Positions 55,465-58,400 of a stretch of DNA of 64,000 nt are shown here, one piece after another. The stretch covers positions 32,001 through 96,000 of the IMG/VR virus record IMGVR_UViG_3300031555_001542. The stretch is one strand, 5' to 3'. Source of the stretch: a virus (Duplodnaviria; Caudoviricetes). The translations under genes were made by a program, and so were the position numbers. The notes below the pieces were generated by a model. The model was not told the origin of the DNA and searched no databases. It was given only the letters and a program-made list of their open reading frames with translations. Each line of letters begins with the position of its first letter. Within the stretch, counting starts at the first letter, position 1.

Positions 55465-58400
55465 ATGGCTAAAGAAGTAAATATTGATAGTCTTGCCGAC
55501 AAGATTGCTGACAGATTGCTGGCCGCAAAACAGCAAGCTCGTGAGGCAGGTGAAGATGTTGGAGAGGAATTTGCTAAAGGTGTTGTGCAAGGTATTCAAA
55601 AACATTCAAAAGATTTTAAAACAGAGACTACAAAACAGTTTGAAGAATTGCAAAAAATAACAAAAAGGTTCAAATCAAAACAATCAGTTTCTACGGCAGA
55701 TTGGAATAAAGCTTTTGAGCTTTCTAAAGAGTTAATGAAAAGCGAAAGGTATGCTAAGAATGTTGAGGAGATTCTTGGTGATGTTAGGGCAACATTTAGT
55801 GGTATCGGTGAAGTATCTGGAATTAAAAACATTGTTAAAGAATTGGATAAAGCCAGTGATAGATTAGAGTCAGTGTCTTGGAGCCAGGCTGGTATGTATT
55901 TTAAAAGCAGGAAGAAGCCAGCTGTTGAACAACCAAAAACAGAAACTCCTGTAGTACAAGCAGATCCTGCACCTGTTGTGAAGGTGGAAGAAAAGAAACA
56001 AAAAGCTATTCAAGAAACTACTGCAGACTTACATGATCAAAAAAATGCGGTTGAAGATGCATCTAAGGCACAAGAAAAATATAACCAAAGAATGTCTGAA
56101 ATTAAAGACAAATATAGCGCAGATATACAAGAACAGAAGCAACGTATTTCAAATCAAGAGGCTTGGCTTAAATATCTAAATGGTTCTTTGGATGAATCAA
56201 AATTTAAAACAACTGGTAAAAAAGCGGCGACAGATCAATTGCGTTCACTTACAAACTATATGGTCAATGGTCGTCGTAATAATTATGCAAATGACCCTGG
56301 ACAATATCCAAAAGAAATGGCCGAAGTTGCCTGGATGCGTGGATATCAAGAGGCAGAAAGACAGGGTGTTGCAGACAGTGTTCTAAGAAGATTTGATACA
56401 GATGCAAGATATGATTTTGATGCAAATTTAAAAAAATTACAAGACGAATATGATATGCGCAAAAAGATTATGGATGCTGCATATGAAGAACTTAAACGTT
56501 TATATTTGGAAAGAGATAAAGAAGCTTTTGCCGCATTTACAGATAATCTAATGCCAGATGGTCCTCAGTCTGATGAGGAAAACAGAATTCTATCCGAGAT
56601 TACAGAGCAAGTTGCTAAAAAAACATTAAGTTATACTGAGGCAAAAGCAAGCCTTGAGAAGTCTATTATAACTTTGCGTAATATGGCATCTTCTGAGGCA
56701 AAAGTTAATCTTCAAAATTTAGTTAATGATTTAAAGAAGACATATGATGCTGAAACTTTTGATAAAGTTTTTGGTGCAGATTTAAATATGTTCGATTGTT
56801 TTGATAAAATTGACGATGCTGGTGCAAAAGAATTGTATGATATGCTCATTGAAAGCAATAAAACATATCAAGCAAGTCTTGTTAAAACTATAGATGTCCA
56901 AAAAGAGTTCAATAAACAAATGCAAGATGGAAATATACTTTATCATGCAGGCGACTTAAGCAATCCATCTAAAACTCAAAAAACATATCCTCTTGGTCAT
57001 GTTCGTCCAAGTAAGAGTAGTGGTATATTTAATGGATTTACTGGTCTATATACCACCGAAGATGTGGATGGGTTCTGGGGCAATGAATGGTCTGGTGCAC
57101 CTATTAGTACGATTGACGCATCTCAATATAAGCTATTTAATGCAAGAACAGACGAGCTTGCAACAAAAGCAAAAGAATTCTTTGATAGTTTAAACGGAAC
57201 AATTTATGGATATATTGAAGATTTTTCTACTGGAGAAATCAAAAAAGCAACTGATGTTAAAAGTATTGATGAATTGTGGACAGATTTCCAAGAAGTGTTT
57301 AAGAATACTAATATGACGTTCGAGAAGTTCTCAGAGTTTATCAAAAAAGCACAAAGTCTTGTGTTTGGCAAGAATTTCGACTTCGTAGAGGGACTTCCAG
57401 ATTTAGATGAGGGAGTTGTAAAAACTGGAGAGAAATCTGCACTACAAGGAGTGTCAAAAGAAGTCTTTAATTTAGATAGTTTCCAAACTCAACTATTAAA
57501 GATGCTTGGTTTTGAAGGTATTGATCTTCGTGGAACTAAGCATAATGGTACTTATACTGGCGGTACAGTTATATTTGATGTTAAGCCAGAAAGTATAAAG
57601 ACCACAAATGAAAAATGGTCTGATGTTATGGCTAGTCATGGATATGAGATTGATGAAGATGATTTAGCTCGTGAAGAAAAGCGTAGACAATTGGCATTTG
57701 ATACCGCAAATGCGTATAGTCAGCAAGCAGATTCTGCAAAAGAAGTTGCGGCTGCACAAAAATCTGACTACTATGAAATGTCTCATAAAGAAGCAACTGA
57801 TTATATTTTTGCCAATTACGATAAAGATTTGTGGGATAGATGGTTCTTGCGTGGCGAAGATGACGCACGATCTGAGATTGCTAAAAAACTAGAAAACGAT
57901 GCAAAGTTAAAAAATGCCGCACTTAATCAGATGTGGCATAATTATAAAGCACAAACAGAATCTGATATATCATATGACGACTTTTTAAATTCTAAGATTC
58001 CTGTATATAGAGGCGAGCGTGCAATTGATCTTTTTGGCAATATTGGAGAGTCAATTACTAAAGATGCAGCGTCTTTTTCTCTAGATAAGAGAATTGCGAA
58101 AGATTTTGCTGGCGCTTTGGATAGTAGAATAGGTGCAGTATTAGAAACATATATCTCACCAAAAGATACTCTCGGAATGCCTCGTCCTAAGTATGAAACA
58201 GAAAGTAATGCAGAGACAGAAGTTCTGGTTCCAATGAATCGAATTGCTGATTCTCCAGAGTACTTAAAATTTAAGCAAAAACTAAAAGAAAAACAAGATA
58301 TACATTCATCTGGAGAAACTTCTGAAGATGTAGAAAAAACAATTACTTCTTATGAAGAACTATGTGGAGTTGTTGCTAGATACAACGAGTTAGTTAAAAA

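Follow-up and report, generated by a model that had tools for sequence, protein, structure and literature searches.

A divergent ADP-ribosyltransferase-like module of the R-S-E type in the N-terminal cargo region of a giant phage tape measure protein

We analysed a 64,000-nucleotide window of Caudoviricetes phage DNA, comprising bases 32001-96000 of the 110-kb IMG/VR virus record IMGVR_UViG_3300031555_001542 (estimated completeness of the record, 68%), and in it a candidate ADP-ribosyltransferase (ART) domain within the tape measure protein. As listed in Table 1, the open reading frame (ORF) that carries the candidate runs past the end of the window. The 4,767-aa translation matched the PhageMin_Tail family PF10145 with 71.5 bits against a cutoff of 33.2, and from about residue 1900 onward it matched six tape measure families of PHROGs, the best of which was phrog_4211 (E 2.4e-71). 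The ORF is followed by a Dit-like gene (E 5e-4) and a Tal-like minor tail gene (E 2e-37). From its PhageMin_Tail core and its position ahead of the distal tail genes we assign it as a phage tape measure protein. A first-pass annotation, made from the sequence alone, had placed an ART domain of the R-S-E clade inside a tape measure at 57790-58240, and this placement was borne out. Translation recovered all three of its motifs at the predicted codons, in the predicted order and in a single frame of a single ORF: IPVYRG (Arg849, codon 58009-58011), then ASFSLDKRIAKDF, then AETEVLVP. The span given for the domain does contain the motifs, but the domain itself is somewhat larger, at about residues 765-948. 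Our results favour, on balance, the reading of these residues as a compact, divergent ART of the R-S-E (cholera-toxin-like) clade built into the tape measure, as judged from the profiles and the predicted structure described below.

Table 1. Features of the tape measure gene, in window coordinates
Feature	Position	Strand	Details
Tape measure protein ORF	55465..>64000	+	continues past window end; full length 4,767 aa (L002:466-14769)
Upstream cargo module	56905..57756	+	aa 481-764; motifs YHAG, GLYTT, GFEGIDLRG, VIFD; common to 15 other giant tape measure proteins
R-S-E ART-like module	57757..58308	+	aa 765-948; envelope of the domain family's hidden Markov model, E 1.4e-61
N-terminal five-helix subdomain (predicted)	57784..57990	+	aa 774-842; DSSP of the model and conservation (W793, K/R802, R/K816-N817-A818, Y827, F840)
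Strand 1 with Y848-R849-G850	57997..58020	+	model strand; R in 152/157 domains, Y in 145/157, G in 149/157
S870-F871-S872	58072..58080	+	S-x-[ST] variant of STS at the end of strand 2, followed by helix D-K-x-x-A-x-x-F
Conserved loop I-S-P-K-D-T-L-G after strand 3	58153..58176	+	P899 in 141/154, D901 in 110, T902 in 143, G904 in 154/154
E917-T-E919	58213..58221	+	directly before strand VLVP (aa 920-923; model strand); E917 in 150/152, E919 in 149/152
PhageMin_Tail (PF10145) core	62110..62739	+	aa 2216-2425

The bare pattern R..S-x-[ST]..E-x-E was uninformative, since it occurred at chance level, with 13 Arg starts in the tape measure against 16.6 +/- 5.8 in 500 shuffles. An extended signature, [YFW]RG..S-x-[ST]..E-x-E-[VIL][LFM][VIL]-P, was found once in the tape measure (at residue 848) and in none of the 500 shuffles. 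The motif stands above chance because its residues are conserved across 157 homologous domains. When residues 760-960 were used as the query of a phmmer scan against 1.84 billion representative proteins (clusters at 50% identity), 187 representatives were hit at E <= 1e-3, of which 33 also passed E <= 1e-10. Conservation was counted in an alignment of the 157 domains to their hidden Markov model (HMM), where R849, E917, E919 and the other motif residues are among the best-conserved columns (Table 1). G904 and W793 are invariant in this alignment, and A878 (141 domains), F881 (139), P899 and T902 are nearly so, as are N817-A818, Y827 and F840 in the N-terminal helices. Position 870 is Ser in 112 domains and Ala in 37, and position 872 is Ser or Thr in 150 of the 157, which gives a family pattern of [SA]-[YF]-[ST]. 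The combination R-[SA]-[ST]-E-E is kept in 138 of the 157 domains; only about four are clearly degenerate, and the window copy carries all the conserved residues. To judge from the order of the motifs, the conserved I-S-P-K-D-T-L-G loop may sit where the phosphate-nicotinamide loop lies in C3/iota-type ARTs.

Pfam searches with the domain, the whole protein and 44 homologues assigned no family to it; individual members gave isolated hits below threshold, one to PF01129 (E 0.0076) and one to DRAT (E 0.087). No match was obtained by tblastn with residues 646-1012 against 50,697 phage records, nor by a pattern scan of IMG/VR contigs, and the sole phmmer match in the PDB was a chance segment of beta-galactosidase (E 1.2). 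A profile of 43 homologues, run against a set of 5.8 billion proteins, returned family members only and no bridge to an annotated ART family. The ESM Atlas gave unnamed viral clusters and a DUF4765 cluster at 0.93, a recognition under the reliable range that was not used.

Comparison of profiles linked the family to known ARTs. The 157-domain HMM scored 9.2 bits against ModB and 9.0 bits against ModA of phage T4 (HMMER p ~5e-5), and 9.0 bits was reached by 2 of 2000 shuffles of ModB and by none of 2000 shuffles of ModA. The alignments passed in order through LYRG (ModB) or LWRG (ModA), the S-x-S helix (SAS of ModA) and E-Q-E. We then compared the family by hhalign with an alignment of nine ModA/ModB sequences from T4-like phages and obtained a score of 34.6 (Prob 56%, P 1.2e-4), with the motifs in register in the extended alignment; all controls, one reversed and 30 column-shuffled, scored lower (9.4-18.0). 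Hhalign comparisons with ModA and ModB as single sequences were insignificant (Prob 3% and 0.6%), the method being informative only with the ModA/ModB alignment. The relatives of ModA in IMG/VR were too similar to serve for a profile, all being above 97% identity.

A second reference consisted of 14 domains of the PF03496 type, seeded on the Pfam-verified domain of a protein, P0054. Here hhalign returned Prob 59% (P 9e-5, 151 columns) and kept all three motifs in register: YRG of the module aligned to tvYRG, S-x-S to STS, and E-x-E to E..E-x-lLp. The PF03496 HMM itself did not match the domain at E <= 1, nor the whole record in six frames at E <= 10, and the PF18760 HMM likewise found no match in the whole record. 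In P0054 and in another protein, P0122, a true PF03496 domain and a domain of the window type stand side by side as separate modules. Because both types adjoin in these two proteins, the window domain is not a PF03496 member and belongs to a distinct family, which may be a remote relative of PF03496. Against PDB sequences, the 43-homologue profile matched 2kxi_A at E 0.038 with S-x-S and E-x-E aligned; this entry is labelled 'uncharacterized protein' and may be NarE of N. meningitidis. Since two independent R-S-E families, ModA/ModB and the PF03496 type, agree, homology of the module to the R-S-E clade is likely. Assembly of the reference alignment also brought up a JGI metagenome protein of 1726 aa (P0171) with five ADPrib_exo_Tox-like domains in tandem, at residues 329-498, 579-725, 773-965, 1028-1178 and 1560-1706.

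A structure prediction had been proposed in the first-pass annotation as a check on the domain. We modelled residues 760-960 with AlphaFold2 from an alignment of 43 small homologues, and the model reached a mean predicted local distance difference test score (pLDDT) of 86.9 and a predicted TM score of 0.84. In the model, five helices (residues 774-842) are followed by a strand with Y-R-G (845-852), a loop, a strand ending in S-F-S (868-872), a helix, a strand at 890-897, the conserved P-x-D-T-x-G loop and a less confident loop, after which E-x-E stands directly before the VLVP strand. R849 thus falls in the middle of strand 1, strand 2 ends with S870 and S872, and the last strand of the core begins at E919, a predicted placement that is canonical for R-S-E ARTs. 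When the model was searched against the PDB with Foldseek, every row listed was an ART, nearly all of the R-S-E clade (C3 exoenzymes, ExoS/ExoT, Plx2a, C3larvin, CDTa, iota Ia, C2-I, Vis, Certhrax and TreX), and none reached E <= 1e-3. This list is informative because the same procedure, applied to the neighbouring module, gave a mostly non-ART list. When VIA was run against the full set of PDB representatives, Z did not exceed 4.4, and the ARTs were mixed with helical noise; re-alignment of the Foldseek list gave Z up to 4.6 for Tpt1/KptA and 3.4-4.3 for R-S-E toxins over 120-133 residues. Values of VIA Z and Foldseek as low as these can reflect merely a common arrangement. In BFVD, the matches were mostly unnamed phage proteins, together with some annotated ARTs, ModA/ModB and MuF proteins. 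The prediction therefore put the motifs on the expected strands and retrieved only ARTs from the PDB, but with fold scores too low to establish the ART fold alone. From the profiles and the model in combination, we regard ART homology and fold of the module as likely.

The module appears to be one cassette in an N-terminal 'cargo' array of about 2,000 residues ahead of the tape-measure core. At least two conserved globular modules precede the core and are shuffled among relatives. The upstream one (Table 1) occurs with 50-88% identity in 15 other giant tape measure proteins of 2,771-6,320 aa, and its invariant motifs are YHAG, G-x-TGLYTT, GFEGIDLRG and Y-x-GG-x-V-x-FD. Its AlphaFold2 model (pLDDT 82.6) had its best fold match in chain 9k3a_B of the cyanophage A4 pre-ejectosome, a weak one (Foldseek E 0.23, VIA Z 4.3 over 129 residues), and it also matched H-Y-type chains of the ART superfamily (MbcT, ParT, NatT and diphtheria-toxin homologues) weakly across the beta core (Z 3-3.9). 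Among the 15 proteins, the R-S-E module was found in only P0016 and P0018, at different positions, and the closest relative, P0003, lacks it. An apparent match in P0009 was rejected as a BLAST over-extension, the domain HMM finding nothing there. Some giant tape measure relatives carry PF18760 (ART-PolyVal) and PF18814. Around the cassette, only short direct repeats at chance level were seen, and no internal repeats were found in the first 2,000 residues of the protein.

The wider family is attached to virion proteins. Its best domain hits are N-terminal parts of other tape measures that end at contig ends just as PF10145 starts, and six proteins contain two copies. Shorter proteins show fusions of the domain to portal (PF04860, PF06381), MuF, Phage_min_cap2 and PhageMin_Tail domains, and the domain also shares polypeptides with NUDIX, Ntox50, RelA_SpoT, InPase, ART-PolyVal, DRAT-like and canonical ADPrib_exo_Tox domains. 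A free-standing homologue (P0186; L020:7001-7939) was found on a 151-kb contig of a Lachnospiraceae metagenome-assembled genome, 3 kb downstream of a gene for a portal-NUDIX fusion (L020:2078-4078) and ahead of MuF, scaffold and capsid genes; a further ADPrib_exo_Tox (PF03496) gene lies at the edge of this locus. Such a place, flanked by portal and MuF genes, is consistent with an effector that the virion delivers, as with T4 Alt. A pattern of fusions and neighbours of this kind is the signature that Iyer, Aravind and colleagues described for virion-packaged, injected ARTs and NAD/ADP-ribose enzymes (PMC9503650, PMC5512222).

We propose that the module consists of a five-helix N-terminal subdomain and a minimal beta core, with the putative NAD-binding Arg on strand 1, S-F-S on strand 2, and E-x-E thereafter. 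At infection the tape measure would exit the tail before or with the DNA, and its N-terminal cargo end, including the module, would arrive in the cytoplasm, where NAD+ is present. The module would then pass ADP-ribose from NAD+ to host macromolecules early in infection, in parallel with T4 Alt and the MuF-VIP2 fusions. We regard catalytic activity as probable, and for delivery into the host cell we consider the case evenly poised. In characterised R-S-E enzymes, E-x-E rather than Q-x-E goes with arginine acceptors. An Arg specificity is thus a reasonable reading of the E-x-E here, and arginine side chains of proteins would be the likeliest acceptors, an assignment that we hold with slightly less than even confidence. 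The first-pass annotation had gone further and proposed host RNA polymerase or ribosomal proteins as targets, as would suit a phage encoding its own RNA polymerase. While the R-S-E ART-like domain found support, these targets did not: nothing in the analysis points to them, and the suggestion follows the T4 precedent. The argument from an own polymerase is likewise unsupported, as no phage RNA polymerase was identified; the search of the 110-kb record for the T7 type (PF00940) was blank but uninformative, control genomes being blank too.

Several results weigh against the assignment of the module as an R-S-E ART. The hhalign probabilities rise no higher than 56-59%, and the fold match is numerically weak, with a best Foldseek E of 0.083, a TM of ~0.27 and VIA Z <= 4.6. 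The model has four clear strands, compared with the six-stranded split sheet of canonical ARTs, and the usual strand after E-x-E is absent from it. S870 is replaced by Ala in 37 of 157 relatives, no model in Pfam, NCBIfam or PHROGs matches the domain, and folded 20-kDa domains have no obvious fit in the tail tube. The weak fold scores, the lack of a curated HMM match and the chance frequency of the bare motif would also be compatible with a module that is not an enzyme at all, either a structural spacer with an ART-like shape or a coincidental motif match. We consider this very improbable, given that the putative catalytic residues are the most conserved ones in at least 150 domains, which belong to many unrelated architectures and of which only a handful are degenerate, a pattern unexpected for a spacer, and that the motifs fall in register with those of two independent R-S-E families at scores well above the controls. 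A module with the ART fold that uses NAD+ might, on the other hand, be something other than a protein-arginine transferase: an NAD+ glycohydrolase, a modifier of nucleic acids or small molecules (pierisin/Scabin- or DarT-type), or an enzyme attaching NAD-capped RNA, as has been reported of T4 ModB. The beta core is closest in sequence to TreX (20% identity), which its authors placed with Scabin-like ARTs (PMC11606950), and the top VIA Z belongs to Tpt1/KptA, enzymes acting on RNA. Moreover, E-x-E is preceded by a long loop that is modelled poorly (pLDDT ~66) and is without the usual aromatic three positions before the first Glu, and RNAylation by ModB has been noted (PMC9503650). Yet E-x-E rather than Q-x-E is almost invariant (150 of 152 domains), the families nearest by profile, ModA/ModB and PF03496, modify proteins, and an injected NADase would deplete a cofactor needed by the phage; overall, an acceptor or activity of this other kind seems unlikely.

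The site of action could also differ from the one that we propose. An active ART might work late in the producing cell, before the tape measure is assembled, or might modify phage proteins, and then be processed off or trapped in the virion and not passed to the next host. ModA and ModB, the closest sequence matches in T4, are not packaged (PMC5512222), and folded globular domains in the tail lumen would be sterically difficult. Against such a role, the repeated fusion to virion components (portal, MuF, minor capsid, tape measure) is hard to explain unless incorporation matters, and the tape measure gene is grouped with tail genes. We regard late action in the producing cell, or on phage proteins, as improbable.

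The module shares several features with known systems. Like T4 ModA, ModB and Alt, it has an aromatic-R-G, an S-x-S with D-K-x-I-A-x-x-F-A, and E-x-E-V-[ML]-[IV]-P, in the same order and at similar spacing. ModA and ModB are its best targeted profile matches, yet marginal ones (9 bits, hhalign Prob 56%), and with Alt only the E-x-E segment was aligned, at a negative score. All three are phage enzymes that modify host proteins, and the virion delivers Alt (PMC5512222). Of these, ModA and ModB are free, unpackaged proteins of 200 aa and Alt resides in the head, whereas the window module lies inside the tape measure; its core is shorter than that of the T4 enzymes, with no predicted strand after E-x-E. 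The combination of an N-terminal helical region with a beta core also resembles ADPrib_exo_Tox (PF03496: C3 exoenzymes, VIP2, iota Ia, CDTa, C2-I). Phages also carry ARTs in the virion as MuF-VIP2 fusions (PMC7302621, PMC9206674). A minimal R-S-E core of ~100-130 residues is found in ART toxins of the TreX/Tre1 type, Rhs effectors of the type VI secretion system (PDB 8s2m, 9gco, 6drh). TreX, stated to belong to the R-S-E clade (PMC11606950), is the structural match with the highest identity, 20% over model residues 84-178, at a Z of only 3.5-3.8. It is an interbacterial toxin that comes with an immunity protein and the chaperone TrxA, whereas the window locus has neither an immunity gene nor an Rhs context.

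A parallel in architecture is with polyvalent proteins, giant multidomain virion-associated proteins with several effector-like modules (Iyer et al. 2017, PMC5512222). The ARTs of polyvalent proteins are of the H-Y-D type, whereas the window module is of the R-S-E type and its carrier is a tape measure; tape measures go unmentioned in that work. A full-text literature search found no published description of an ART inside a tape measure. Virion-borne R-S-E ARTs are already known, and what is probably new here is that a giant tape measure carries, as cargo, a module of an R-S-E ART-like family that is uncatalogued. As a broader and more tentative possibility, a large uncatalogued clade of R-S-E ARTs (at least 187 clusters) may be attached interchangeably to ejected virion proteins, with giant siphovirus-like tape measures serving as polyvalent effector carriers that thread enzymes through the tail ahead of the DNA. 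Threading through the tail tube would require the enzymes to be stored in an unfolded or extended form and to refold in the host. No description of such a route was met in the papers searched, and it would contradict the published statement that polyvalent proteins lack R-S-E ARTs.

One classic route of host takeover by phages is the delivery of ADP-ribosyltransferases with the virion, T4 Alt being the model case, and the known carriers are the head (Alt, MuF fusions) and polyvalent proteins with a different ART clade. If the module is active and delivered, the tape measure would be an enzyme vehicle besides a ruler and channel-former, which raises the question of how folded cargo domains are stored in the tail and pass through it. 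A widespread effector family of uncultured phages would then be currently unannotated, and the alignment of the 157 domains could seed a new domain model.

Other features of the tape measure and its surroundings were noted. If fully helical, a tape measure of 4,767 aa would far exceed ordinary tail length. Near its C-terminus, beyond the window, it has a Gly/Ser-rich linker and a sequence like a peptidoglycan-binding repeat, and relatives carry PF01471 or PF01476. Directly upstream of the gene lie an endolysin-like gene (51180-52661), a holin-like gene (53944-54264) and a gene for a RuvC-like resolvase (54355-54858), at a position where tail tube or chaperone genes would be expected. Farther upstream, ORFs of 1000 aa (26857-29859), 918 aa (30849-33605) and 1907 aa (44817-50540) all match phrog_14959, a family of unknown function (E 2e-81, 3e-65 and 7e-151, respectively), and represent paralogous giant virion-module proteins.

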